From a virus (lineage: Duplodnaviria; Caudoviricetes), in IMG/VR virus record IMGVR_UViG_3300011335_000724, positions 1 to 30,837 of that record: a stretch of DNA of 30,837 bases. The stretch is one strand, 5' to 3'. The notes beneath the pieces are model-generated. The model did no database searches and was not told the DNA's origin. It saw only the letters and a list, made by a program, of their open reading frames with translations. The translations under genes and the position numbers were made by a program. Shown here in pieces: positions 1,747 to 30,837 of the stretch. The stretch's first letter is position 1, and every line of letters starts with the position of its first letter.

Positions 1747-2445
1747 ATGAGCAGCTTTCTTTTTGCCGTTAAGGCCACTCATAAGCCACCAATGCCTCAC
1801 CAACAGGCCGCTTGGAATTTTGCCTGGGATCAACTTGACGAAAAGCAAAAAGCTGAATTTTTGGTGTTATTTCGGTCTGACCCACCACAAAAAGCAGCAT
1901 TAATTGGCAAGGTACTATTAAATGTTAAGTATGAATACCAGCTGGACAATGCCAGTGGCAGCGGATATAGAGAATGTTTCAGTAGTTCATGCGCCATGGT
2001 TGCAAATTTTTGGGGCAAGGTTGAAAATGACGACGCATATAACAGAATTAGAGAACGGTACGGCGACACAACAAGCAGTAGCGCTCAAATTTCAGCATTA
2101 CGTTCGCTTGGCCTTGACGCACGGTTAGTAACCAACGCCAGTGCTGGTGTACTAGAAGCAGAATTAAAAGCTGGGCGCCCTGTACCTGTTGGGTGGCTTC
2201 ACAAAGGAAATAACTGGAATCCCTCGGGGGGCGGCCATTGGTCTGTGGCTATTGGATTTGACGACACGCATTGGATCCTCCACGACCCCAATGGGGAAGC
2301 AGATTTAATAAATGGCGGTTACGCTAATCACAACAATGGAAAAGCAATTCGCTATTCCAAAGTAAACTTCAACCGGCGTTGGTGTGTCAGTGGCACGTCA
2401 GACGGTTGGGCGATCCTCTGCAAACCGCTTGACCCCCATGGTTGA
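1747..2445 (+). CDS. Peptidase C39-like cysteine peptidase, probable endolysin
   Basis: Q..N...GYRECFSSSCAM (catalytic Cys), GRPVPVGWLH, GGGHWSVAIGFD (His), HDPNG (Asp); located in the lysis region. Confidence 0.75.
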   Translation: MSSFLFAVKATHKPPMPHQQAAWNFAWDQLDEKQKAEFLVLFRSDPPQKAALIGKVLLNVKYEYQLDNASGSGYRECFSSSCAMVANFWGKVENDDAYNRIRERYGDTTSSSAQISALRSLGLDARLVTNASAGVLEAELKAGRPVPVGWLHKGNNWNPSGGGHWSVAIGFDDTHWILHDPNGEADLINGGYANHNNGKAIRYSKVNFNRRWCVSGTSDGWAILCKPLDPHG

Positions 2446-3400
2446 AGTCATCCGCCACAGTCCAGAGCTTATGGAACTACGGATTCCATACACCTCCACC
2501 AAGGTTCCGTTTAATTTTTTTCTAGCTTCTGACATTCACCTTGACAATCCAAAATGCAAACGCAAGTTGTTTGCTAAACATTTAAACGAGATGCAAGAGA
2601 AGGGGGGGAAAGCACTTTTTTTTGGGGACATCCTCTGTTTAATGCAGGGCAAGAAGGATCGTAGAAGCGATAAGTCGAGCATCCGGCCTGAACATTTGGC
2701 TGGCAACTATTTTGACGTTGTGTTTGAAGAAGCAGCTGAGTTTTTAAAGCCGTGGGCCAAGGATATTGTGATGCTAAGTGACGGCAACCACGAGACAGCG
2801 ATTATTAACCACAACGAAGTAAACCCGCTTCGGCATGTGTCAAGAATGCTGCAAGCTTATGGCAGCAAGTGTGAACACATGGGGTATCAGGGGTTCGTTT
2901 GGATAACGTTTTATCAGGAAGGCCGTGAAAATGCGCAACAAAAGCAAGAAAAAGTTAGACGTTTGACGTTAGCTTTTCACCATGGAGCGTGGGGTGGCGT
3001 TGTAAGCAAAGGTATTAACGGTGGAATGCGATACTTTTCAATATTTCCCACGGCGAACATAGTGGTAAACGGTCATAACCATGAGCGGACAATAGTCGAG
3101 CATCCGTGTCATTCTGTCATGAATAGCGGCGAAGTGTTTACAGATGTTAGATACCATTGTCAATTAGGTACGTACAAGGAAGAATTTAGGGGCGGGGGGG
3201 GATTTGCCGTGGAGCGAATAGTTATGCCAAAGGCGATTGGAGGGCTTGTTATGTCATTGCGTCCCAGGCAAAGCAGCGGCGTAGAGATTGTACTGCAGCC
3301 TGCCGTATGCACCATTACGTTGTCGAAGTATGGGCTCTTATTGCTGTTTACAGCCCCTATGACGCCGAGACAGTGGAAGACAACATGGCTTCCATGTTGA
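2438..3400 (+). CDS. Calcineurin-like metallophosphoesterase
   Basis: SDIHLD, FGD, DGNHE, FHHG and GHNH motifs in the canonical order; ATG at 2438 overlaps the peptidase 3' end. Confidence 0.85.
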   Translation: MVEVIRHSPELMELRIPYTSTKVPFNFFLASDIHLDNPKCKRKLFAKHLNEMQEKGGKALFFGDILCLMQGKKDRRSDKSSIRPEHLAGNYFDVVFEEAAEFLKPWAKDIVMLSDGNHETAIINHNEVNPLRHVSRMLQAYGSKCEHMGYQGFVWITFYQEGRENAQQKQEKVRRLTLAFHHGAWGGVVSKGINGGMRYFSIFPTANIVVNGHNHERTIVEHPCHSVMNSGEVFTDVRYHCQLGTYKEEFRGGGGFAVERIVMPKAIGGLVMSLRPRQSSGVEIVLQPAVCTITLSKYGLLLLFTAPMTPRQWKTTWLPC

Positions 3401-8141: not shown

Positions 8142-8175
8142 AAAACCCCTAGCGGCTGTGAAAGCTGCTAGGGGT
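8142..8175 (-). terminator. Rho-independent terminator ending the leftward early operon
   Basis: Minus strand ACCCCTAGCAGCT-TTCAC-AGCCGCTAGGGGT (one mismatch) followed by TTT, just after the last leftward ORF. Confidence 0.75.
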
Positions 8176-8207
8176 GGTGGTGTTGTGTGGTGGTGGTGTT
8201 GTTGTTG

Positions 8208-8354
8208 TTAGTCGGGAAGGGGTGTTGGTAGGGGAGTGGTGCGGGGTGTTGCTATGTAGGTAGAGCTTGGGTTGGGCAGGTTGGCTAGGTGTTGTAAGGC
8301 AGCAAGCCAGAGCAGTGCTGTTGCTGTGATCAGGGCCAGGAGGTAGCGGTTCAT
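8208..8354 (-). CDS. 48-aa single-pass membrane/secreted peptide MNRYLLALITATALLWLAALQHLANLPNPSS...PLPD
   Basis: ATG overlaps the ardC stop (ATGA); signal-anchor-like N-terminus; terminator follows. Confidence 0.55.
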   Translation of the reverse strand: MNRYLLALITATALLWLAALQHLANLPNPSSTYIATPRTTPLPTPLPD

Positions 8355-9340
8355 AACAACACCTCGGCAGCTGGTGTGGCTGTGGTGTTGGTGTTGGTGA
8401 TCAAGTCTGCTGCTGCTCTGGCCTTGCCAAGGACCTTAAACAGGGAACCGGGCTCAGCTTGCAGGATGGCTGCCCACTGCTTGAGATAGGCCGCATGATT
8501 AATAAGGCAACAGCCAACCTGTAGCCGGTAACAGATCAAGACAGAGGCCAGCTCTGCCACTAGTTCTTCGATGGCGTAAGGCTTGGACCCTTGGCTGCCG
8601 TGTTGTGGCCTGTTGAGCCTTGCCTTGTGGCCAGTGCTATGGGCCTGTTCATGGGCCCAGGTAGCAACAAACGATTCTCGATCGTTAAAGCTCTCAAGTG
8701 GTGGCATCCTGATCGCGTCCAGCTGTGGCGAATAGCAAGCAACAGCACCGCCATAGGTGGTGGGAACTAGCCAAGCCTCGAGCACTTGCTCTGCTGCTTC
8801 CAACCTCTCGGCTTGTGGCTTGGTGGTGTTGTGGCCTAAAGCGCTGCTGATCGCAGCCTGTAAGGCCAGCTCTGCTGCTTCGTCAACACCTTTGAAGTCT
8901 GCTGCATTGAAGACGGCAACAGCTTTGTAAGAGGTCCAGGCCCTAGTCACGTCAACTTCGTTACCTGTTGCGGGGTCCTGTTCTGTTTCGGTGTAGCTGT
9001 TGGCTTGCGGTCTAAGGATGCGGCAACAGGTTGACCCTTTCTTGGGCCACCAGTTAAGAGCCTTGGCTTGGGCTGCACCTAACCAAAGGGGCAGGGTATG
9101 GCCTTGAATCATGGACCCAAGCTCAAGTAGCAAAGGGTTGCTGCCTGAGTACTCGGCACCTGTGATCAAGTTGCGGTGATTGCCAGAGGTGGCGGTCCAC
9201 TCCTTACGCCAAGGCGGGAGATCTGCTGATTCCATCAACGCCACTAGATCAGCGGCAAGCTTCTCCTCTGGTGATGGCCCGTCGTATTTGGCCTTGGCCT
9301 TGGTGCTGGTTGTTTTGGTCTTGGTGGTGGTGGTAGGCAT
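8351..9340 (-). CDS. ardC: ArdC-family ssDNA-binding antirestriction protein (DUF1738 N-domain plus zincin-like C-domain)
   Basis: PPWRKEW, NLITGAEYSGSNPLLL, W....QA......KKGS, VFNA, ACYSP..D.I.MP....F, HEQAHSTGH..RLNR, YA.EELVAE; likely start ATG 9340 (MPTTTTK). Confidence 0.9.
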   Translation of the reverse strand: MPTTTTKTKTTSTKAKAKYDGPSPEEKLAADLVALMESADLPPWRKEWTATSGNHRNLITGAEYSGSNPLLLELGSMIQGHTLPLWLGAAQAKALNWWPKKGSTCCRILRPQANSYTETEQDPATGNEVDVTRAWTSYKAVAVFNAADFKGVDEAAELALQAAISSALGHNTTKPQAERLEAAEQVLEAWLVPTTYGGAVACYSPQLDAIRMPPLESFNDRESFVATWAHEQAHSTGHKARLNRPQHGSQGSKPYAIEELVAELASVLICYRLQVGCCLINHAAYLKQWAAILQAEPGSLFKVLGKARAAADLITNTNTTATPAAEVLL

Positions 9341-9374
9341 GGGTTCAAGTGGTGGGGTGGGGTGGGGTGGGGCG

Positions 9375-9566
9375 TTACTGCACCGAAGAATCAAACCATT
9401 CGCAATCAGCAGGGGGGGCCTCTGCTTCAATTGTGAAGATGGGGGCTTCTGGCCAATCAGCAATCACGTGATTAATCCAAGCGATAGCTTGCGCCTTGGT
9501 TCTCACAATGTGAGCTAGATCACGCTGGCCGCAATCGTTGGCAACGATGTAGAGAGGGGTGATCAC
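9375..9566 (-). CDS. Hypothetical early protein, 63 aa
   Basis: GTG start overlapping the upstream TGA; co-oriented with ardC. Confidence 0.6.
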   Translation of the reverse strand: MITPLYIVANDCGQRDLAHIVRTKAQAIAWINHVIADWPEAPIFTIEAEAPPADCEWFDSSVQ

Positions 9567-10063: not shown

Positions 10064-10224
10064 GCCTGCACCTGGGCCTGCACCTGGGCCTGCCGAGGCA
10101 ACGCGCACGCGCACACGCTTGCCTGCGCCCGCGCCCGCGCCCGCCCGCGCCCGCGCCTGCGCGGGACGCGCGCGTATGAATGTGTAGATTTCGAATGTGT
10201 AGATTTCGAACTTTTCCTGCACCT
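10064..10224. repeat. Tandem repeat cluster: (GCCTGCACCTGG)x2.5, CGCGCC/alternating CG runs, (GAATGTGTAGATTTC)x2
   Basis: 12-mer at 10064-10093, GC-only run at about 10125-10157, 15-mer at 10178-10207, CCTGCACCT again at 10216-10224. Confidence 0.9.
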
Positions 10225-14544: not shown

Positions 14545-14914
14545 ATTCCGGAGCAAATTTGAAGCAGTAATCGCGGCCTCTCTACTTAAGAGAGGCATGT
14601 CGTACACCTACGAAACAACTGGATTGCCGTATCAATTGCAGAATGTGTACACCCCTGATTTCTTTTTAGCTAACGGGGTAATCGTAGAGACTAAAGGTTT
14701 GTTTAGCCCAGAAGATAGGCGCAAAATGATTGCGGTTAAACAGCAGCATCCTGATTTAGATATACGGATTTGTTTCATGGATGCCCGCAAGAAATTATCA
14801 AAAGCTCCCGCTTCAATTAGCTACGGCCAATGGGCTGATCGCCATGGTTTCATTTGGAGTAGCGGTCGAATACCCATCGAATGGTTAGCTGATGAGCAAG
14901 TGCATCCGACATGA
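14438..14914 (+). CDS. gp3: Endonuclease I / Holliday junction resolvase (T7 gp3-like); start uncertain
   Basis: FRSKFE, YE...L.Y....YTPDFFLANGVIVETKGLF...DRRKM..VK.QHPDLDIR, YGQWA..HGF. Confidence 0.93.
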   Translation: MDSQPKKDGRQAQAKKLRQSRLTEKLASSSTRWTSKFRSKFEAVIAASLLKRGMSYTYETTGLPYQLQNVYTPDFFLANGVIVETKGLFSPEDRRKMIAVKQQHPDLDIRICFMDARKKLSKAPASISYGQWADRHGFIWSSGRIPIEWLADEQVHPT

Positions 14915-16496
14915 TCCATGCCCCAAGTGCGGCAGCAAGGACAACCTTGCCGTATATGACGATGGCCATAGCCATTGTTTTGGTTGCGGCCACACTGTTC
15001 GTGCGAATGACGGCAAAACCCCACCACCACCAGAGATCTTGCCACCTGTGACTACGCCCTTATTGCCGTTCATAACGGTTAAAGCTTTAAAGACGCGAGG
15101 CATTACCAAAGAAACAGCCGCTTTCTTTAATTACGGATACAGCGAATTTCGAAACCAACAGGTGCAGGTATCTGAGTTTCGTAATCAGCAAGGACAGGTA
15201 GTAGCTCAACACATCCGGGATAAAGACAAGCGCTTTGCTTGGGTGGGTGACACCAGTTCTATGCAGCTATGGGGCCAACACCTATGGCGGCAAGGCATGG
15301 GTCGCGGCGGCTTGTTTGTAGTGGTAACAGAAGGCGAGATTGATGCGATGAGCGTCAGTCAGGTGCAAGGCAACAAGTACCCAGTGGTGTCTTTACCTAA
15401 CGGGGCACAGTCAGCCAAGAAATATTTGGCCGCTAACCAGCAATGGCTTAGCCAGTTCGATCGGATTATCTTGTGTTTTGACAGCGATGAACCTGGCCAG
15501 AAAGCAGCGACTGAAGCCTTGGCAGTATTGCCTTTAGGTAAAGCTGCCATCTGCCATCTGCCTCGCAAAGATGCCAACGAAATGTTGGTCAATGGTGAAG
15601 GTGATCTGTTGCGAGATCTGTTATGGAAGGCAACGCCTTCAAGACCTGACGGGATTGTTAATGCCGCTGAGCAATGGGATGAATTAATCAAGCCGCAAGC
15701 TGGAGCGGTGTGTGCTTATCTCTGGCCTGAGTTAAATCGTATGACACGCGGCTTTAGAAAAGGAGAGATGCTTACTCTGTGTGCCGGTAGTGGGATTGGC
15801 AAGTCTTCTATTTGCAGGGAATGGGCGCATCACTTCTTAGCTAACGGTATGCGGGTGGGGTACATCGCCTTGGAAGAATCGTTAAAGCGTTCCATGCAAG
15901 GGATCATTGGGATTGAATTAAACAAACCAATACACCTAGACCCTGGTCTAGTTACACAGGAAGAAATGAAGGCAGGCTTTGACAAAGTGTTTGGCACTGG
16001 CCGTTGTTTTCTTTACGACCACTTCGGTTCAATGGACCCTGAACATTTGATTAATAAAATTAGGTACCTAGCTGATGTAGAAGGTGCTGACGTTTGCTTC
16101 CTTGATCACCTAACTATTGTCATTAGTGGATTGGCGGAAGTAGACGAGCGGCGGGCTATTGATTTGACATGCACCAAGTTGCGGCAAGTGGTTGAACAAA
16201 CAGGGATCGGGCTTGTGTTGGTGTCACACCTTAAGCGCCCAGAAGGCCGTAACCATGAAGAAGGTGGGCAAACATCACTGTCTCACTTACGTGGCAGCCA
16301 TGCCATTGCACAGCTGTCAGACATGGTTATTGGGGCTGAACGCAACCAGCAAGGAGACACTTGCCAACGCAATGAATTGCAACTGCGGGTACTAAAGAAC
16401 CGCTTTAGCGGGGAGACAGGTACGTGTGACAAGCTGTTGTATGACATGACTACAGGCCGGCTGACCGTACCAATGAGTCAGTACTTTGGCCTTTAA
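14892..16496 (+). CDS. gp4: DNA primase/helicase (T7 gp4-like)
   Basis: Zn finger CPKCGS.D...YDDGH.HCFGC, TOPRIM TEGEIDAMS and FDSD..G, Walker A AGSGIGKS, LDHL, VSHLKR, LRGS..IAQLSD, KNRFSG. Confidence 0.97.
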   Translation: MSKCIRHDPCPKCGSKDNLAVYDDGHSHCFGCGHTVRANDGKTPPPPEILPPVTTPLLPFITVKALKTRGITKETAAFFNYGYSEFRNQQVQVSEFRNQQGQVVAQHIRDKDKRFAWVGDTSSMQLWGQHLWRQGMGRGGLFVVVTEGEIDAMSVSQVQGNKYPVVSLPNGAQSAKKYLAANQQWLSQFDRIILCFDSDEPGQKAATEALAVLPLGKAAICHLPRKDANEMLVNGEGDLLRDLLWKATPSRPDGIVNAAEQWDELIKPQAGAVCAYLWPELNRMTRGFRKGEMLTLCAGSGIGKSSICREWAHHFLANGMRVGYIALEESLKRSMQGIIGIELNKPIHLDPGLVTQEEMKAGFDKVFGTGRCFLYDHFGSMDPEHLINKIRYLADVEGADVCFLDHLTIVISGLAEVDERRAIDLTCTKLRQVVEQTGIGLVLVSHLKRPEGRNHEEGGQTSLSHLRGSHAIAQLSDMVIGAERNQQGDTCQRNELQLRVLKNRFSGETGTCDKLLYDMTTGRLTVPMSQYFGL

Positions 16497-16514
16497 CCCA
16501 CCACACACACCATT

Positions 16515-16757
16515 ATGAAATGCCCTTCTTGCGGTGACGAACCAGGCGTTCGCGCCCGCCATACCCGCACTGATTCAAACAACACTGTTATTAGACGCAG
16601 GCATTGCACTGCCTGTGATCACCGTTGGTACACAGCCGAAGTGCCCATACCGGCTGAAGCCGTAATGCATGGATTCACTGAAGGTAAAACCCGTTCTACG
16701 TTTGAGCTAAAAGGTTCTGTTCTTTATTCAGGAGATTGCTATGACACTTTTGATTGA
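16515..16757 (+). CDS. NrdR-N-like zinc-ribbon protein
   Basis: MKCPSCG...TR......IRRRHCTACDHRWYTAE matches the NrdR N-terminal Zn ribbon; no ATP-cone domain. Confidence 0.7.
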   Translation: MKCPSCGDEPGVRARHTRTDSNNTVIRRRHCTACDHRWYTAEVPIPAEAVMHGFTEGKTRSTFELKGSVLYSGDCYDTFD

Positions 16758-17499
16758 TGCCGATTGGTTGCTCTATGTGGCTTGCGCTGCTTCTGAGCAA
16801 GACATTAGATGGACAGAAGATGTGCACACCCTGCACTCTGAACCCCTTGCGGTGCAAGCATTTATTCAAGGCAAAATTAATCAATGGAAAAAACTAACAG
16901 GCCATAGTGATTTGGTTATGTGCTTGTCAGATTATCCAGGGTTTCGTTCTACCTTGTTCCCGGAATACAAGCAAAACCGTTTTGGCCGGCGCAAACCGCT
17001 TGCGCTTGCAGCTTCAAGGAAAGCTTTAATAAAGGCTTACCCAAACAAGGTGATACCAAACCTAGAAGGTGACGACGTTATGGGTTTGCTTATGACAGAC
17101 GGTACTATTAACGACCCGGTAATGGTGGCAGTTGATAAAGACATGCGCACCATTCCAGGCAAGCTATTGGTTAACAACGAACTTGTGTGCACAACAGAGG
17201 CGGAAGCCAATTTTAATTGGATGAAGCAAACTTTGACTGGCGATAGCACCGACAATTACCCAGGCATTAAGGGTTGCGGTCCTAAAACTGCAGCAAAATT
17301 ATTAGAAGGCACCAAAGACTTAGCCCAGATGTGGGCAGCAGTGCTGCGTGCATACGCAAAAGCGGGGCTTGAATCTAATAAAGCGATTCTTAACGCAAGG
17401 CTTGCTCGCATCCTGCGCAATGGAGACTACAACTACGCAGACAACGCTGTGCGATTATGGGAGCCGAACACGGATAAGGAGATCCAATCGCATGGATGA
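16741..17499 (+). CDS. gp6: 5'-3' exonuclease (T7 gp6-like)
   Basis: LLIDAD, FR....PEYK.NR..RKP, LEGDDVMG, DKD..TIPG, QTLTGDSTDNYPGIKG.G.K.A, ARLARIL. Confidence 0.95.
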   Translation: MTLLIDADWLLYVACAASEQDIRWTEDVHTLHSEPLAVQAFIQGKINQWKKLTGHSDLVMCLSDYPGFRSTLFPEYKQNRFGRRKPLALAASRKALIKAYPNKVIPNLEGDDVMGLLMTDGTINDPVMVAVDKDMRTIPGKLLVNNELVCTTEAEANFNWMKQTLTGDSTDNYPGIKGCGPKTAAKLLEGTKDLAQMWAAVLRAYAKAGLESNKAILNARLARILRNGDYNYADNAVRLWEPNTDKEIQSHG

Positions 17500-22895: not shown

Positions 22896-25313
22896 ATGCC
22901 ACTGGTCAGTAGCTCAATTCCTAACCTGATTAACGGGGTAAGCCAGCAACCAGCGGCTTTGCGTCTTGCTTCTCAAGCAGAAGAAGTCGTTAACTGTATG
23001 CCAAGCCCAGTTGAAGGATTAAAGAAACGACCACCTTGCTACAACCTTGCCAAAATTATTAGCGGCAATGCCGGCGCAGCTAGGCCTTTTACTCATATTG
23101 TTGATCGTGACGGCACAATTAAATACTTAGTATTCATTCAAAGCGGTGCCTTAAAAGTATTTGGATTAGATGGTTCTGTCAAGACCGTCACCGCTACCAC
23201 TAACTTTAATTACCTTACTGTCGCGGGAGAGCCAAGTTCAGCTTTTAGGGTAGCGTCAATTGCCGACTATACGTTTATTGTTAATCGCGAAAAGACCGCA
23301 ATTATGGCAGGAACGTTATCAACTGACTGGGGCACCAAGAGTATGGTGTTTATTAAGACAGCTGATTACGCAACAACATATTCCATCACTGTTAACGCAA
23401 CTACGGTTACAGACACAACTCAGAACTCAGGTGGTAATGCCCCAAGTAACGTAACAATTGCCGCTAACCTCGCGGCTTCGTTGCAGGCGGCTTTAGGCGC
23501 AGGCAACTTTACGGTGACAAGTACTGATTACATTGTTCGCATTACCAAGGTAGACGGCGGGGCGTACACACTTAGTTCTAAAGATACCCGTAGCGGCCAG
23601 ATGACAATAGCAATTAAAGGAACAGTCGACACATTGTCAGACCTACCTACTATTGCTGAACATGGATTTACTGTAGAGATCTTAGGTAGCCAATCCACTG
23701 GCTTAGATAATTATTATGTGAAGTTTGAAACCAATACAGGCAGCGGGTTTGGCCATGGCATTTGGCGCGAAACAGTAGCGCCAAACATCCCGTATTTGTT
23801 TGATGGGACAACAATGCCGCATGTGTTAATACGCAATGCTAACGATACATTTACCTTTGAAGCTTTCCCCTGGTCAGGCCGGGTAGCTGGTGACGTAGAT
23901 ACTGCCCCTGACCCAAGTTTTGTTGGCAGCAAAATTCAAAACATACAGTTATTTAGGAATCGCTTAGCATTTCTAGCTGACGAAAACGTAATCCTGTCTG
24001 CTACTGATTCTTACGACCGCTTTTGGCCGGAGACAGTGCAAACTGTTGTTGACAGCGACCCCATTGATATTGCAACAGGCGGCCAAGAAATCAATTTCCT
24101 TGTTAGCAGCCTGGCTTTTGCTAACTCGTTGTTATTATTTAGCCGTCACAGCCAATTCCGGCTGGACACTGGCAACGTTGCTGCAGCTTTAACACCTAGG
24201 ACAGCCAGTATTTCGGCTCTTACTACTTTTGAAATGCTTGATTCAGTTGACCCTATAGCTTTAGGTCGCACTATTTTCTTTGCTGTACCCAAAGGTGATA
24301 ACACTGGCGTAAGGGAGTTTTTCCTGCCAGATAGCAGCGGCCCTGCCCCTGTGTCGGAAGAGGTTACGTCTGCTATCCCCCGTTATATTCCAAACAATAT
24401 ATGTGCTATGACCGCGACTGTATCAGAAGAAGGTTTAGTGCTGCTTAGCAAGACTCAACCAAGGCGAGTGTACCTATATAAGTTCTTCTTCCAGGACGAC
24501 TCTAAGCTACAGTCAGCATGGTCGTATTGGGAAATGGAAGGCGTTAAAGAAATAATTGGCGCTGACATCCTTGACAGTGATTTGTTCCTAAGCGTTCAAT
24601 ATGCCGACGGCGTTTATCTGGAACGTGTCTCACTGCGCCCAGAAACAGTTGATGCTGGCACTAACATTGAGATCTTGCTAGATCGTAAGACAACAGAAGC
24701 TAGTTGCACCGTAGCGCTAACAAACCCTGCCGGCCTTGATGTTCAATCAACTATCACTTTGCCGTATCCAATTAATAACACTAGCTCAATGGCGGTTGTA
24801 GGGCGCTTCTTTGCAAACAATACAATCCAGCATGGCCAAGTGTTGATCCCTATTAGCCAGACACTGGCAGGTGGGACAGGCGGTAATGGCACCTTGGTAG
24901 TAAGAGGCGATTTGACTGCAGCTAAGTTTTTTGTTGGTGAGCTGTACGATCTTCTGTACGAGTTCAGCACCCAGTACATAAAGGAGCAACCACCTGGCGG
25001 GGGCATTGCAATTGCAGCAGGGCCTAAATTGCAGTTGCGGACATGGACCATGATATTTGATACCACCTCAGCGTTTGAAATAAAGACCACGCCAAAGGGG
25101 CGGGACACTAACACTTACCCTTACAACGCAATAGTGCCTGGCGATAACTCGTTGCTTGGTTCGCCTGGCGTTGCTACCGGTAGGTTTAGAGTGCCGGTAA
25201 TGACCGAGAACATAAGCGCCGTCATTCAATTGGCAAGCAGCAGCCCATTGCCTTGCCGTTTTCAGTCGGCCGAATGGGAAGGGTTTTATCACACCAGATC
25301 ACAACGACTATGA
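22896..25313 (+). CDS. gp12: Tail tubular protein B (T7 gp12-like)
   Basis: SIPNL.NGVSQQP, N..P..V.GL.KRPP, W.ET.AP, TMPH.L.R, P.PSFVG, FRNRL.FL, D.DPID, QSAWS.W, WEG.Y..RS.R. Confidence 0.96.
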   Translation: MPLVSSSIPNLINGVSQQPAALRLASQAEEVVNCMPSPVEGLKKRPPCYNLAKIISGNAGAARPFTHIVDRDGTIKYLVFIQSGALKVFGLDGSVKTVTATTNFNYLTVAGEPSSAFRVASIADYTFIVNREKTAIMAGTLSTDWGTKSMVFIKTADYATTYSITVNATTVTDTTQNSGGNAPSNVTIAANLAASLQAALGAGNFTVTSTDYIVRITKVDGGAYTLSSKDTRSGQMTIAIKGTVDTLSDLPTIAEHGFTVEILGSQSTGLDNYYVKFETNTGSGFGHGIWRETVAPNIPYLFDGTTMPHVLIRNANDTFTFEAFPWSGRVAGDVDTAPDPSFVGSKIQNIQLFRNRLAFLADENVILSATDSYDRFWPETVQTVVDSDPIDIATGGQEINFLVSSLAFANSLLLFSRHSQFRLDTGNVAAALTPRTASISALTTFEMLDSVDPIALGRTIFFAVPKGDNTGVREFFLPDSSGPAPVSEEVTSAIPRYIPNNICAMTATVSEEGLVLLSKTQPRRVYLYKFFFQDDSKLQSAWSYWEMEGVKEIIGADILDSDLFLSVQYADGVYLERVSLRPETVDAGTNIEILLDRKTTEASCTVALTNPAGLDVQSTITLPYPINNTSSMAVVGRFFANNTIQHGQVLIPISQTLAGGTGGNGTLVVRGDLTAAKFFVGELYDLLYEFSTQYIKEQPPGGGIAIAAGPKLQLRTWTMIFDTTSAFEIKTTPKGRDTNTYPYNAIVPGDNSLLGSPGVATGRFRVPVMTENISAVIQLASSSPLPCRFQSAEWEGFYHTRSQRL

Positions 25314-25789
25314 CCCCACCTCTTAGGCCCACAGTTGTAACTGATATTGCTTGGATAGCAGGCCGAATGAGAGCGGCTGATGTTGCTGAGGTAAAAGCCA
25401 ATAGCGGGCTTGAACCACGGGTTGGTTTGCTGCATAGCTACATGAAAGGCAAACCATGCATCACAATGGTGTCAAATAGAGGGGAACCATTAGCAATGGG
25501 CGGGGTCGTGCCAGACGAATTCAATAGCCGGGTAGGCCAAATATGGTTGCTGGGTACTGATGCGTTGGTGGAAAATACGACTAACCGTATGCGGTTTCTA
25601 AGAGGTTGTAGGTCTTGGGTAAATGCTATGCACCGTGAATACGACGTGCTGTGGAATTACATGGACGCTCGTAATGTTGTGCACCGTCGCTGGGTTGAAT
25701 GGATGGGGTTTACCTTTATTGCAAAACGGCCAGACTGGGGAGTAGAAGGTCGTTTATTTTTGGAGTTTTGCAAGGTGAACCATGTGTGA
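25310..25789 (+). CDS. gp13: Internal virion protein A (T7 gp13-like, GNAT-like fold)
   Basis: MR..D..EV.A, G.IWLLGT, LWNY.D.RN..H..W..W.GF.F; ATG 25310 overlaps the gp12 stop. Confidence 0.85.
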   Translation: MTPPLRPTVVTDIAWIAGRMRAADVAEVKANSGLEPRVGLLHSYMKGKPCITMVSNRGEPLAMGGVVPDEFNSRVGQIWLLGTDALVENTTNRMRFLRGCRSWVNAMHREYDVLWNYMDARNVVHRRWVEWMGFTFIAKRPDWGVEGRLFLEFCKVNHV

Positions 25790-26927
25790 TCCAGTCAGCG
25801 TTGGTATTACAAGCACCGTCGTTGGGGGGGGGCTTAACATTGCCGGCCAGGCCAGCTCGTACCAGCAGGCAAAAAGCAATGTCGCTTTTGCTAATGCCCA
25901 AGCTGACATGGATTACTTCCAGACGCAGTTAGATGTTGATGCAGCTAACCGCCAAGCGCAACGGCGGTATTTTCAGGCACAGCAAGAAGAAGCTTATGCC
26001 AACGCACAAGCAGATCGGCAGTATTTCCAAGCACAGCAAGACACTGCTTACGCTAATGCCAGAGCAGATCAAGATTACTTCCAGGCGCAACAGAACACGG
26101 GGTATGTTAACAGCCAAATTAAACAACAGTATTTTCAAACTCAGCAGAATACAAAGTTTGCTAACGCCCAAGCCGAACAACAATACTTTCAGGAAAAAGA
26201 AGAGACAGAGTACGCTAATTTTGCTGCTCAACAAGGTTATCAATACCAGCAAATGCAGGCCGCAACTGCACAAAGCTACGAAGATTTACGGTTTAATCAG
26301 CAAGAAGCACTAATACAACAGACAAGGTTGATTGCTGATAGCGCTTACGCTAACGAAGTGGGGGCATTGAATCTAAGATTGATGCAAGAGCAAGAAGTTG
26401 CGGCACAACAAAGGCAGCAAGCGAACATACAAGCGATGGAAGCTAGCGGTTCCGTAAGAGCTGCTGGCCGAGTTGGGAATTCTATTGAAAGCTTGATTGC
26501 TAATTACGAACGCCAGCAAGCGCAATTTGATTTCGTGACCAACCGCAACTTGGCGTTTGCAACAGCTCAAATACAAGAAGAGAAGCGAGGAGCTGCTGCT
26601 ACTAGAGGTTCCAGGATTGCTAGCCAGCAAGCTTATATCAGGCAGCCTATCCTTGATCCGATGAAACCAATAACAGCGTTAAATCCAATGAAGCCAATAC
26701 TAGCAATTGAGCCGTTACCGCCGATACTAGCGTTAGATCCACTCAAGCCCATCCAGGGCATGGCGCCAATTAAACCTTTGCGAGCGATGACTCCCATGGC
26801 CCCAAGCCCAATATCAGCTCCAATAAAAGGACAAAAACAAGCGGAACCAAGCGCTACACCGTACATATTGGCAGGTGCTGGTGAATTGGTTTCAACTGCT
26901 GCGTCTGTTTATAAGCAGTCTCGATAA
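25782..26927 (+). CDS. gp14: Internal virion / ejection protein B (T7 gp14-like) with 18-aa and 9-aa repeat expansions
   Basis: MCDPVS start, hydrophobic Gly-rich N-terminus, A.G...A.GR.GNS...L core; synteny. Confidence 0.85.
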   Translation: MCDPVSVGITSTVVGGGLNIAGQASSYQQAKSNVAFANAQADMDYFQTQLDVDAANRQAQRRYFQAQQEEAYANAQADRQYFQAQQDTAYANARADQDYFQAQQNTGYVNSQIKQQYFQTQQNTKFANAQAEQQYFQEKEETEYANFAAQQGYQYQQMQAATAQSYEDLRFNQQEALIQQTRLIADSAYANEVGALNLRLMQEQEVAAQQRQQANIQAMEASGSVRAAGRVGNSIESLIANYERQQAQFDFVTNRNLAFATAQIQEEKRGAAATRGSRIASQQAYIRQPILDPMKPITALNPMKPILAIEPLPPILALDPLKPIQGMAPIKPLRAMTPMAPSPISAPIKGQKQAEPSATPYILAGAGELVSTAASVYKQSR

Positions 26928-29755
26928 TGGCAAAACTTAGTACCGGTCAAAACTATGGCACCATTCCAGGTTCTGAAACCGCGCAACGTTTAATTGGTGG
27001 TCTTGCCCAAGTAGCTAGTGCCGGTGCTTTAGCGCAAGAAGCAATAGCAACGCCTACTCTTAGAGCCCAAGCAAAACCGGTAGATACGTTCCAGACAATT
27101 GGAGCACCGACTCTGGGCGGCCCGCCAAAGGCACCTCAGATGGCTGCATTACCTGACTTGCCTCGGGCGCCGGCATTGCCAAGGCCGACTGAGATGCAAG
27201 GTGCGCCAAACCTCCCAAGTTTGCCAAGCTTGCCAAACCTGCCGCGACTGCCTGAACTGCCTGGGCTTATAAATTTACCTGAGTTACCAGCGCAAACTAG
27301 GTTGCCAGCACAACCTAAGCCAAACCAAGACCTAGCTAATCTTGCTGAAGCGTTATCGTCATTCAACCAAAATTTGCAACAGGTTGGCCGTACATATCAA
27401 GAAGTAACGCAACAACAGGAAAAGAAAGCAGCTGATGAAGGCAAGCAAGCTGCCGCGCAATTCTCTGGATTGGGTTACAACAGCTATAAAGAGGCGCTGG
27501 CTGCAGCAGAAAAGAATGCGGCAGTAGATCCAGCAAGAGTGGCCGAACTAAATTTATTGAAAACATTAGATCCAAGACGTCAGCGATATTTTAATGAGCA
27601 ATTAGGCGACTCAAACTTTAAGCAAAGGATGGCAGAAGCTAAACAAATAATTGCATACACAAAAAAATTGCCTGACGGCCGGATCCTAGAGACTGTAGCT
27701 GCTAATGACCCAGCACTTATTGAATGGCACCGGAGCTTAGTTGTACCTGCGAATATAACGCCTAAGGCTTTCTTTGAGAATCAAGCTCAATACCAAGCAC
27801 TTATGGGTTCGGTCAATAGCGATCAAATCGCACGCAATGCTAAATACTCTGACGAGAAACAAATAAATGGATTTAATGTTGGGTTGGGTGGCAGCGTAAC
27901 AGAACTAGCGTCAGGCACAATTAGTCCTGAAACTTTTGCGTCAAAATTTGGCGCAAGCCTCAGTGCGTTTCAATCAGGGGGGGGCACCCCTGGCCAATAC
28001 CAAACTGTAAAAGCGACATTAATTCCTAAGCTTGCTGAAATTGCTGTAGCTATAGCAAGTGATAGGCCTGGCCGCGTTCAGATATTAGAAAACCTTACTG
28101 GCAATTTAATTAAAGCTCTGCATTTAACACCAGCAGGGCCAAACGGAGAACCGCTTATTACGCAACTTGGCATGTCGCCTGAAGTCGCACAAGTTGAATT
28201 GGCTCGGCTTATTAATAAAGGCGTAAATGCTGATAGAGCAGACGCTGACAGAACCGCAGCAACCATTGGGAAAGACGCCGCTGTTAATGACCTAAAGGCA
28301 GCTCCAATGGAAACTGCTGGCCAAATAATAGATTCAATTGCGTTTTTAAGAAAGAATGCTGAACAACGTTTTAAAAATAACCCAGAGCAATTAAGCTCAT
28401 ATTTAGCAACGTTGGCGGACGGGTACGCTTCAAAAGCTTTAACAATTATCAAACCTGTACAAGAAGCTAACGCAAGAAAATATGACCAGCGAGACCCGAC
28501 AACAACAACGCCAGCAAAAGACTTGGCTGAATACGCAAGGGCACAAGAACGCGGTGAGATTAGCCAGGAAGACTATACCCGCTTAGCAAATAGAGCCAAC
28601 GCAAGGATGGATACCGCTAACAACGCAAACTTTAAAGTTGCGAATCAAAACGAAAAAGATTTAAGAGCAAGGCTTGAAAAAGAATATGAAACATCTGGGT
28701 ATGGGGACAAAAAGCCTGGCATTAGCCCCGCCGAAAATGTTGAAATTAGCAACCGGATCGGCGAATACCGCAGGCAAACCACTGAGCTTATTCAAAAAGC
28801 TAAAGGCGCTGACATAAGTAATGAGTTGAATGATTTGTACCTAAAAGCTACTGCCCCGCAACAGCAAAGGGCGCAAAGGAGAGCACAACAACCAGCTTAT
28901 GCTTCACCTGAAACTGTAAAGTCTAAATTAGACCGAACATCAGGAGACGTAAAACGTAATTACCGGTCAGGACCGCTATATCCAATGCCAGTTTTTGGAA
29001 AACAACTAGATGACATTATGGAGAACAAGCCAATAGACGACTCCACCAAGGAGATTATTAGACGGTTAGGAGTTACACCGTTGGAATATTTTACGCAACA
29101 GAATGACCAACACAACCCAGGCAAACCACTCCCTGCCCCAGTGCTGGAAAAATTAAAAGCATTAGATAAAGTCTCCTTGGCGTTGCCTGTAAGTGGAGGA
29201 GGTTCCATGGGATTGGGAATGATCACACCTGATATGGCCCGAGCACAACGCCTCTGGAAAGCAATTCAACCTCCAACCCCTCAACCAACCATGTCTAGCC
29301 CAAGCTTGCCTGAACCAACAGGTTCCGTGACAGGTAAAGCTGCGTCTATCAGAGAAGCAGCTAGGCAGTTAGGAATAGATCCTATTGCTCTTGCGGCTGT
29401 AATACATAAAGAAAGTCAGTTTAGAGCAACTATCATAGGAGGCGCCGGCAATAGATACCAAGGCTTGATCCAATTTGGCCCTACAGAAAGGAGGGATTAT
29501 GGCTACAGCGACAAGCAAACATTTGAACAGCAAATGCTTGGTCCTGTAGTTAAATTTTTAAAAGCCCGCGGAGTTAAGCCTGGTCATGGAGCGCAAGAGA
29601 TTTACGCAGCAATCCTTACCGGCAACGTAAGCAACATAGCCAGAGGGGGCCTCGATTGGAAAGACAGCAATGGAACCACAGTTCGCAACTCATTACCTAA
29701 CCTTACAAAAGGCGTAGATTACAAAGCAGCAGTCCGATTCATGAAAGGTAACTAA
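26927..29755 (+). CDS. gp15: Internal virion / ejection protein C (gp15 position) with a C-terminal lytic transglycosylase-like domain
   Basis: Synteny; A.PVDTF and DL..LA.ALS.FN.NL N-terminal motifs; C-terminal AARQLGIDP..LAAVIHKESQF...YQGLIQFG. Confidence 0.8.
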   Translation: MAKLSTGQNYGTIPGSETAQRLIGGLAQVASAGALAQEAIATPTLRAQAKPVDTFQTIGAPTLGGPPKAPQMAALPDLPRAPALPRPTEMQGAPNLPSLPSLPNLPRLPELPGLINLPELPAQTRLPAQPKPNQDLANLAEALSSFNQNLQQVGRTYQEVTQQQEKKAADEGKQAAAQFSGLGYNSYKEALAAAEKNAAVDPARVAELNLLKTLDPRRQRYFNEQLGDSNFKQRMAEAKQIIAYTKKLPDGRILETVAANDPALIEWHRSLVVPANITPKAFFENQAQYQALMGSVNSDQIARNAKYSDEKQINGFNVGLGGSVTELASGTISPETFASKFGASLSAFQSGGGTPGQYQTVKATLIPKLAEIAVAIASDRPGRVQILENLTGNLIKALHLTPAGPNGEPLITQLGMSPEVAQVELARLINKGVNADRADADRTAATIGKDAAVNDLKAAPMETAGQIIDSIAFLRKNAEQRFKNNPEQLSSYLATLADGYASKALTIIKPVQEANARKYDQRDPTTTTPAKDLAEYARAQERGEISQEDYTRLANRANARMDTANNANFKVANQNEKDLRARLEKEYETSGYGDKKPGISPAENVEISNRIGEYRRQTTELIQKAKGADISNELNDLYLKATAPQQQRAQRRAQQPAYASPETVKSKLDRTSGDVKRNYRSGPLYPMPVFGKQLDDIMENKPIDDSTKEIIRRLGVTPLEYFTQQNDQHNPGKPLPAPVLEKLKALDKVSLALPVSGGGSMGLGMITPDMARAQRLWKAIQPPTPQPTMSSPSLPEPTGSVTGKAASIREAARQLGIDPIALAAVIHKESQFRATIIGGAGNRYQGLIQFGPTERRDYGYSDKQTFEQQMLGPVVKFLKARGVKPGHGAQEIYAAILTGNVSNIARGGLDWKDSNGTTVRNSLPNLTKGVDYKAAVRFMKGN

Positions 29756-29757
29756 CC

Positions 29758-30837
29758 ATGCCATACGTTGAAAGCAAAGATCCAACAACCGGTTTAGTCA
29801 CTAGGGAGTATGTGCTTCCTACAGCTAGTGCAACTCCGGCTGCACCTAAGCCTGCACCTAAGCCTATTGCGGCACCTGCCCCAAAGCCTGCCCCTGTTGC
29901 TGCTCCTGCACCGTCTAATAATCCTTTAGCCAATTTGGGCCAAGCTGTACAAACCGGCTTGCAGAGTTTTGCTAAAGATCTAAATGACCGCGGCCAAGAA
30001 AGTAGTGCACTTATTGGAGCTGCCCGTGGCTTGACACGCATGGGTTACAGCACCGTGCGTAATACGGCTCAAGAACTAAGCGATGTTGGTACTGAAGCAA
30101 TTGCCAAAATCCAAGGGAGGCCATCCCCTACATCCGCCAAAAGGCCAGATGCACCATTCCTGGGCATTATGCCCCCGCTGCCTAAAGCTAAAAGCAGTGG
30201 CCCTGCTGAGGACCTAGCTGTTGGTATTGGCCAGTTTGCATTGTCTTGGATTCCAGTAGCAAAAGGAGTAGGTCTTGTTGGCAAAGGTTTATCTATGTTG
30301 CCTGGCGCTAGCAAGGTTGCAGGTGCAACGCAAGCTGTAACGCAAGCTGTAAAAGCAACTAAGGCAGTCCAGCAAATTAGCAAGGTTCCTGGCGCTGCAA
30401 TCGTTGGTAAATCAATAGCAGAGAACACACTTACTAAAGCTGCAGCTACTGGTGGCGTAATTGACTTTGCTGCATTTGATCAATACGAAGGACGGCTAAC
30501 AGATCTGCTTGAGCAGATGGGGCCGTTAAAACATCTAGCTATTGATTACCTAAAGTCTGACCCTAAAGACGTGGGGTTAGACGGCAGGTTTAAAAACGTT
30601 CTGGAAGGAGCACTCTTTGGTACTGGGCTTGAAGTCGCATTCCGTACTTTTAAAGCTGTACGAGCAACGAGAGCTGTACAAGGAGCACCAACAGAAGCGC
30701 GAAGGGCGGAGTTATTACCTGTAGCGGTAGCGGCTAACAACGATTTAGAGACGGCTGTTATTAGACAACAGACCATACTGCCGCCTATTGCACCGTCGCC
30801 GCCTGTAGCACCTCGCCCCGCAGTGCAACCAATGGGG
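29758..30837 (+). CDS. gp16: Internal virion / ejection protein D (gp16 position), 5' partial (MPYVESKDPTTGLVTREYVLP...)
   Basis: ATG at 29758, two bases after the gp15 stop, apparently open to the window end; QFALSW, GG.IDF..FD..EGRL.D and GRFKNVLEG...G motifs; absent from the track because it has no stop in the window. Confidence 0.8.
   Translation, partial: MPYVESKDPTTGLVTREYVLPTASATPAAPKPAPKPIAAPAPKPAPVAAPAPSNNPLANLGQAVQTGLQSFAKDLNDRGQESSALIGAARGLTRMGYSTVRNTAQELSDVGTEAIAKIQGRPSPTSAKRPDAPFLGIMPPLPKAKSSGPAEDLAVGIGQFALSWIPVAKGVGLVGKGLSMLPGASKVAGATQAVTQAVKATKAVQQISKVPGAAIVGKSIAENTLTKAAATGGVIDFAAFDQYEGRLTDLLEQMGPLKHLAIDYLKSDPKDVGLDGRFKNVLEGALFGTGLEVAFRTFKAVRATRAVQGAPTEARRAELLPVAVAANNDLETAVIRQQTILPPIAPSPPVAPRPAVQPMG

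Follow-up and report, generated by a model that had tools for sequence, protein, structure and literature searches.

Two arms of gp14 and a tether of gp15 keep proportional lengths across T7-like phages, suggesting a length-matched ejectosome stalk

The stretch analyzed here (hereafter the window) is the whole 30,837-nucleotide (nt) sequence of IMGVR_UViG_3300011335_000724, a linear virus record that is 79% complete and carries a T7-like gene set. Its ejection proteins gp14 and gp15 contain long repeat tracts, and we found that the segments holding these tracts, the N-terminal arm of gp14 (N), the C-terminal arm of gp14 (C) and the tether of gp15 (T), are proportional to one another across the family, their lengths co-varying at 2:1:1 in T7-like phages. 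The initial annotation of the window had proposed that the three expanded together and had named independent variation of the repeat numbers as an outcome that would refute it; we looked for such variation, and the arms co-vary instead. We regard it as likely that the gp14 helix, the gp14 return strand and the gp15 tether form a three-strand stalk, and probable, with somewhat less assurance, that the lengthened segments make the DNA conduit longer where it runs from the tail nozzle to the outer membrane of the host.

The 18-residue units of gp14 start at 25890 (amino acid (aa) 37) with a period of 54 nt, and the self-identity of gp14 at lag 18 was 58, as compared with 15.0 expected (z 12.7, p 0.0005, 2000 shuffles). 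The Pro-rich units of 9 residues begin at 26646 (aa 289) and gave 23 identities at lag 9 versus 6.5 expected (z 7.3), and the gp15 tract has Pro at each third residue, with z of 4.2 to 6.2 at lags 3 to 21. Contigs of 4/4 runs, from four studies of which any may be the source of the record, spanned 25700-27500 with zero differences or gaps. The 18-aa, 9-aa and LPx repeats claimed in the initial annotation are therefore confirmed where it had placed them, above shuffles and in gap-free contigs. The LPx tract, however, does not begin gp15 as had been stated; it follows a conserved head of 65 residues, its first residue being aa 66, and it is not continuous. Mean DNA identity between repeat units was 0.54 for the 18-mer and 0.50 for the 9-mer; because the units have diverged, a collapsed or recent slippage repeat is ruled out. 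The ratio of nonsynonymous to synonymous differences (pN/pS) between the window and a relative (L002) was 0.07 in the 18-mer arm, 0.09 in the core, and 0.29 in both the 9-mer arm and the gp15 tract (aa 66-116), and both Pro-rich arms are under purifying selection. Both are also amphipathic, with hydrophobic periodicity at 120 degrees (p 0.0005 each); aromatics in the helical 18-mer arm are spaced about nine apart and could receive the hydrophobic stripes of the Pro-rich strands.

As compared with the common short form among close relatives, the long form has gained 108 aa in the gp14 N-arm, 54 in the gp14 C-arm and 54 in the gp15 tether. An α-helix rises 0.15 nm per residue and polyproline II 0.31 nm; at those rises the gains amount to 16.2 nm (N-arm), 16.7 nm (C-arm) and 16.7 nm (tether), if the segments are helix and polyproline II. 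The three-tract length match of the initial annotation thus stands, while its values of 18, 19 and 20 nm are replaced by the excess over short relatives, which matches more closely. Window gp14 is 381 aa long, versus ~215-265 aa in most close relatives, and the hairpin core contains zero indels within the close family. Among 188 close gp14 proteins, 179 have the same arm lengths, two full-length proteins and one truncated protein are long, five differ by small steps and one could not be placed; with cluster members added, the +108/+54 gain was exact in 23/23 full-length long gp14. In 77 close gp15 proteins, the spacer is 14 residues in 55 and 68 (+54) in 19, with three unplaced; the +54 gain was thus exact in 19/19 placed long gp15 clusters. 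A sister lineage shows matched small steps in gp14 (N/C), in sequence unlike the window's: +18/+9 once and +7/+3 four times.

We sampled the wider family by a profile search of 50%-identity representatives, in which other long forms turned up; 430 loci were gathered and gp14 was placed in 407. N was measured from the N-terminal anchor to the turn, C from the turn to the C-terminal anchor, and T from the gp15 motif to the first helix. The N/C/T classes were 76/56/14-15, 80/58/16, 87/61/19-20, 105/70/29, 135/83/42-43, 142/85/47, 167-171/101/62 and 213/124/83, the last being that of the window, whose gp14 arms are the longest of all measured here. For the 35/66 locus representatives that passed a fixed score filter, the slope of N on C was 2.06 (r2 0.995) and that of T on C was 1.03 (r2 0.996). 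Independent contrasts on a 169-column FastTree phylogeny gave slopes of 2.02 and 1.01, respectively, with 19/20 and 20/20 non-zero contrasts agreeing in sign; the correlation was 0.99, and 0.94 and 0.97 after removal of the three largest contrasts. Distant gp14 proteins alone (92/150 placed) gave a slope of 1.96 and rho 0.96, with 78/92 at most 5 residues off the line. A further 13 representatives were anchored by hand; in 10 long forms the deviation from the line was at most 5 residues, and in three shorter ones it was 6-10. In the tree, the window clade adjoins the short-form L004 and another long clade (L180-183) adjoins the short-form L075, with unrelated repeats; from these sequences, the L180-183 lineage is judged to have expanded independently of the window clade. 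Other lengths did not behave in this manner. Leader lengths showed no correlation with the arms in the locus and distant-gp14 sets, nozzle length did not track arm class among the locus representatives, and C-tail length was related to N by rank correlation only (rho 0.57 and 0.35; r2 0.08 and 0.04).

The AlphaFold2 (AF2) model of window gp14 has a helix at residues 23-227, a turn, a helix at 233-280 and then coil, giving a predicted helical hairpin with hydrophobic ends. Chains of the T7 tail complex were the top three Foldseek matches to this model, at weak E-values. In the AF2 model of the short form, the coil after helix 2 keeps a predicted local distance difference test (pLDDT) score of 74-76, a hint that this coil may dock. 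The PF24072 score of gp14 is 28.8 bits against a curated cut-off of 27. The gene order nozzle-gp13-gp14-gp15-gp16 is present, gp15 and gp16 being named mainly from synteny and weak profiles. The T7 gp14/gp15/gp16 ejectosome has the same gene order, the PF24072 match and the helical hairpin model, and T7 lies near the scaling line (N 76, C 58); judged by sequence, the locus holds genuine T7-like gp14/gp15 ejectosome genes. In DNA-ejected T7, gp14 25-143 is described as an antiparallel pair of helices inside the nozzle that reaches the lipopolysaccharide (LPS) with its distal end, and in the pre-ejection state gp14 is broken into five short helices (PMC11784390). In the phiKMV-like phage Ar-KM, gp41 is reported to send both of its termini, where membrane helices are predicted, out of the nozzle, and residues 5-35 of gp42 form the lining of the gp41 tube (bioRxiv 10.64898/2026.05.18.726046). 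The ejected topology of Peru-2 agrees with T7 and Ar-KM (PMC13320782), and DEV gp73 has been modelled with a different membrane topology (PMC11445570).

In the published structures, the ejected gp14 hairpin has its turn in the nozzle and both ends toward the outer membrane, and the gp15 N-terminus lines the gp14 lumen; the conserved PV.T[FY] motif of gp15, also found in several proteobacterial phages, may act as an anchor within the gp14 tube. We propose that, past helix 2, the tube wall would consist of helix 1 alone, braced by the extended (polyproline II-like) gp14 return strand lying outside or between the helices, and the gp15 strand would run along the stalk, leading down to the periplasmic tunnel. 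In that topology, the membrane anchors can move away from the nozzle only if helix 1, the return strand after helix 2 and the gp15 tether gain equal distances, as is observed; all three strands would span one distance, so that 0.15 nm x 108 = 0.31 nm x 54. The stalk is predicted to measure ~11 nm for the T7 class, 16 nm for the common freshwater form and ~32 nm for the window. The antiparallel gp14 arms and matched gp15 tether envisaged in the initial annotation fit the published ejected-state topology, and the arms may be in contact. Its term 'tape measure' is apt only by analogy: a long-tail tape measure protein templates a separate tail polymer, whereas the gp14 and gp15 arms, although mutually proportional, would themselves make up the tube. 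The 37 open reading frames (ORFs) of this 79%-complete record that were scanned in PHROGs gave no match to a tail-tube or tape measure protein.

The P60/S-CBP2-like phages have a Pro-poor gp15 tether rich in Q/E/K/R/A, which by its composition is probably helical. T was measured in 10/12 of these loci; N/C/T was 90/67/34 in three and 101/72/45 in five, so that N and T each differ by +11 and C by +5. S-CBP2 itself gave 166/106/about 120 with tentative anchors, N and T again scaling roughly 1:1, and the C anchor of P60 was not placed. Because the Pro-poor tether scales 1:1 with the helix, the conserved quantity looks like distance rather than residue count.

Relatives and samples offer some indication of the host. 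A PHROGs scan of the window identified RNA polymerase, primase/helicase, portal, scaffold, capsid, adaptor and nozzle, and among cultured phages the best matches were to the P-SCSP1 phages of Prochlorococcus (66.6% for the capsid and 46.5% for RNA polymerase). DNA polymerase had 0 matches among the 37 scanned ORFs of the 79%-complete record. The interval 14892-17499, between primase/helicase and exonuclease, gave no DNA polymerase hit, as in MPP-C cyanopodoviruses, a lineage reported as T7-like and without this gene (PMC9860041, PMC10575957). This suggests that the window phage belongs to a freshwater branch of the MPP-C lineage; the MPP-C cyanopodovirus P-SCSP1u has the short arm class 101/68/31, whereas the window phage is long-armed, freshwater and uncultured. 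The stretch was present in 20/24 listed runs, from 10 studies, labelled freshwater, riverine, aquatic, drinking-water, viral or coded. From the kinship to cyanophages and these freshwater runs, the host is likely a freshwater picocyanobacterium, and some Synechococcus are reported to bear S-layers and sheaths (PMC8955281). In the most speculative step of our proposal, the extra reach would carry the tube through a thick outer layer of such a host, be it long LPS, an S-layer or a sheath.

How ejection by T7-like phages could work from a height of ~20 nm over the outer membrane was regarded as unclear in a 2023 review (PMC10743462, section 5.2), which names phiKT, a phage with non-enzymatic O-antigen-binding fibres, and guesses at a slightly longer tube. 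In phiKT, the protein encoded at the position of gp14 has 275 aa, with N 122, C 82 and the first gp15 helix at 71, versus 76, 58 and 41 in T7 (hand anchors, as automatic profiles failed); SP6 is short-armed. Tuning to the host surface, which the initial annotation had put forward, therefore has one supportive case in phiKT. Peptidoglycan, one of the layers it had listed, is the least likely barrier because the published topology places the added length between the phage and the membrane-inserting ends. That stalk length is tuned to host coat thickness is plausible, at about even chances. We advance more tentatively still the idea of a tunable reach, in which a modular stalk of ~10 to 32 nm, read from sequence, would predict nozzle stand-off and report host coat thickness.

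Several observations weigh against these interpretations. The clearest evidence against strict coupling comes from four mismatched gp14 in the sister lineage (+7/0 three times and 0/+9 once), whose gp15 partners were not linkable; these may be tolerated intermediates, recombinants or chimeric assemblies. The profile anchors were seeded by the analyst from 7-8 loci, and placement of the N anchor can err by one helical turn. The 31/66 locus representatives that were dropped include five treated separately, the rest lacking gp15 or having weak anchors, and some gave off-line values; 58/150 distant gp14 representatives were likewise dropped. In the window model, pLDDT falls below 50 for gp14 aa 313-381, and the 18-mer helical arm showed no hydrophobic moment at 100 degrees (p 0.24). 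Some long tethers are Pro-poor (9% Pro in the S-SRP02-like class), and 'extended' is safer than 'polyproline II' for the strands family-wide. Long (213) and short (105) forms share the same freshwater runs, and the phiKT gain, a single case, is ~7 nm rather than the 20 nm of the review.

An alternative that we consider unlikely is that the arms are matched and the tube is longer, but that the extra length lies inside the envelope, in a wider periplasm or a thick cyanobacterial peptidoglycan. This would accord with the greater length of cyanophage forms as compared with proteobacterial ones, with the topology modelled for DEV gp73, and with the fact that insertion of the gp14 ends into the membrane is predicted, not resolved, in the cited structures; yet in all forms the inserts lie proximal to both hydrophobic ends, it is the far end of the T7 hairpin that meets LPS, close relatives vary twofold (105 vs 213), and the arms of phiKT and T7 differ though both phages infect Escherichia. 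Slightly less probable again is that the matching serves the packed capsid state or portal threading, with hydrophobic polyproline faces shielding the helix and reach as a by-product. The five short helices of pre-ejection gp14 do not demand a strict end-to-end length rule, and the switch from 1:2 to 1:1 for the Pro-poor tether points to physical distance, although gp14 and gp15 do bind in the pre-ejection core and the amphipathic Pro-rich strands could be built-in chaperones. Neutral or independent low-complexity expansions, co-occurring through shared ancestry or general protein lengthening, are very improbable and largely refuted: the long clade is one event, and the four mismatched sister sequences and the C-tail rank correlation lean that way, but the contrasts persist without the largest three, C-tail r2 is low, leaders and nozzle do not track, the three tracts have different repeat units split over two genes, and pN/pS is 0.07-0.29.

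Our preferred reading, an ejected three-strand stalk, can be set beside known systems. gp14 has been described as the most size-conserved ejection protein, varying by <30% (181-240 aa in 14 phages tabulated; PMC8954989); the 381 aa of window gp14 lie outside this range, which we regard as a variant feature and not as a ground for exclusion. Unlike in T7, the return and tether strands of the window proteins are long and Pro-rich, and gp15 carries a transglycosylase-like domain. Ar-KM gp41/gp42 are similar in the hairpin termini outside the nozzle, the gp15-like N-terminus in the lumen and the wall hydrolase on the gp15-like protein, but gp41 is short (C-terminal segment 151-181) and the sections consulted describe no length series (bioRxiv 10.64898/2026.05.18.726046). 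The nearest functional analogue is phiX174 H, a Q/N/R-rich helical DNA conduit of 7- and 11-residue units (PMC7354561); the length steps here include 7, 11, 18 and 22. phiX174 H is a single-protein coiled-coil tube, whereas three strands of two proteins co-scale here. Kuravirus SU10 is a podophage answer to a 20-25 nm stand-off (via PMC10743462) that extends external nozzle domains and fibres, while here ejected internal proteins would lengthen. We found no report of co-scaling ejectosome arms or a 2:1:1 rule in the literature consulted, which was mostly open-access and without supplements.

Features of the ejection operon are listed in Table 1. For the gp13-like gene, the start was taken as ATG 25310, where the ORF finder gives TTG 25253. 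The gp16 N-terminal Pro/Ala/Lys tract did not scale with the arms, and similar tracts occur in the short-arm relatives L005 and L043.

Table 1. Genes and segments of the ejection operon in the window.
Feature	Position	Strand	Basis or remark
gp12-like nozzle (tail tubular protein B), 805 aa, ordinary length	22896..25313	+	phrog_457, E 4e-204
gp13-like protein	25310..25789	+	PF11090 above cut-off; phrog_308
gp14-like outer-membrane channel protein, 381 aa	25782..26927	+	PF24072, AF2, Foldseek
gp14 N-terminal hydrophobic segment, predicted membrane-inserting	25782..25871	+	conserved anchor; role by analogy to Ar-KM gp41 1-25
gp14 N-arm: 6 full + 1 partial 18-aa repeats, Pro-free, predicted continuous helix	25890..26252	+	
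gp14 hairpin core, conserved	26253..26645	+	turn glycine aa 232 (26475)
gp14 C-arm: 9-aa Pro-rich repeats, every third position hydrophobic	26646..26846	+	
gp14 C-terminal hydrophobic helix, predicted membrane-inserting	26847..26918	+	conserved anchor; AF2 helix 367-379, low confidence
gp15-like periplasmic tunnel protein, 942 aa	26927..29755	+	synteny; phrog_4928
gp15 N-terminal motif PV.T[FY]	27077..27091	+	nearly invariant in gp15 alignment
gp15 tether: 68-aa (hydrophobic-Pro-x)n tract; 14 aa in short relatives	27122..27325	+	
Transglycosylase-like domain, C-terminal in gp15	~29339-29665	+	PF01464 E 4e-4, just below cut-off
gp16-like protein, cut by window end	29758..30837	+	phrog_6651, weak

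Further observations concern the ejection genes of relatives. Close relatives differ in which wall-hydrolase module is swapped in at the C-terminus of gp15 (PF01464, PF01551 with PF03330, or PF08291; P0263, P0279-P0283, P0301, P0305), while the N-terminal tether is fixed. The gp16 open frames in G001-G004 are 1631, 2143, 2231 and 1809 aa, the shortest being that of the long-arm clade. Four gp14 relatives (P0361, P0363, P0369, P0485) have an additional C-terminal domain of ~65-70 aa, possibly akin to intramolecular chaperone/autocleavage tails; P0461 looks like a gp13-gp14 fusion, and P-RSP2 (L289, 1-1456) has a 611-aa gene at the expected gp13 position. Genome bins labelled Melainabacteria or Vampirovibrionales carry T7-like ejection operons of the 87/61/19 class (L312-L319). 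Elsewhere in the window are a gene on the minus strand for an ArdC-like anti-restriction protein with ArdcN and MPTase-PolyVal domains (8351-9463), in a T7-like phage, and, on the plus strand, a C39-like peptidase/endolysin followed by a calcineurin-like phosphoesterase (1747-3400), a pair also found in G003. Short GC-rich tandem repeats (10064-10210) lie where transcription direction switches, and a GGT-rich stretch (8173-8241) lies in the region of that switch.

The three-way length rule offers a concrete, testable answer to the 20-nm ejection puzzle, for which the cultured phages T7, phiKT, P-SCSP1u, S-SRP02 and S-CBP2 are usable, and it describes a natural ruler pair of helix and polyproline across two proteins. 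With it, the reach of the ejectosome may be predictable from sequence alone in thousands of uncultured phages, and matched insertions would, if the proposal is true, be a design rule for longer ejectosomes. With a longer tube, short-tailed phages could get through thick surface coats, which, if true, would explain how those without depolymerases fire through O-antigen or S-layers.

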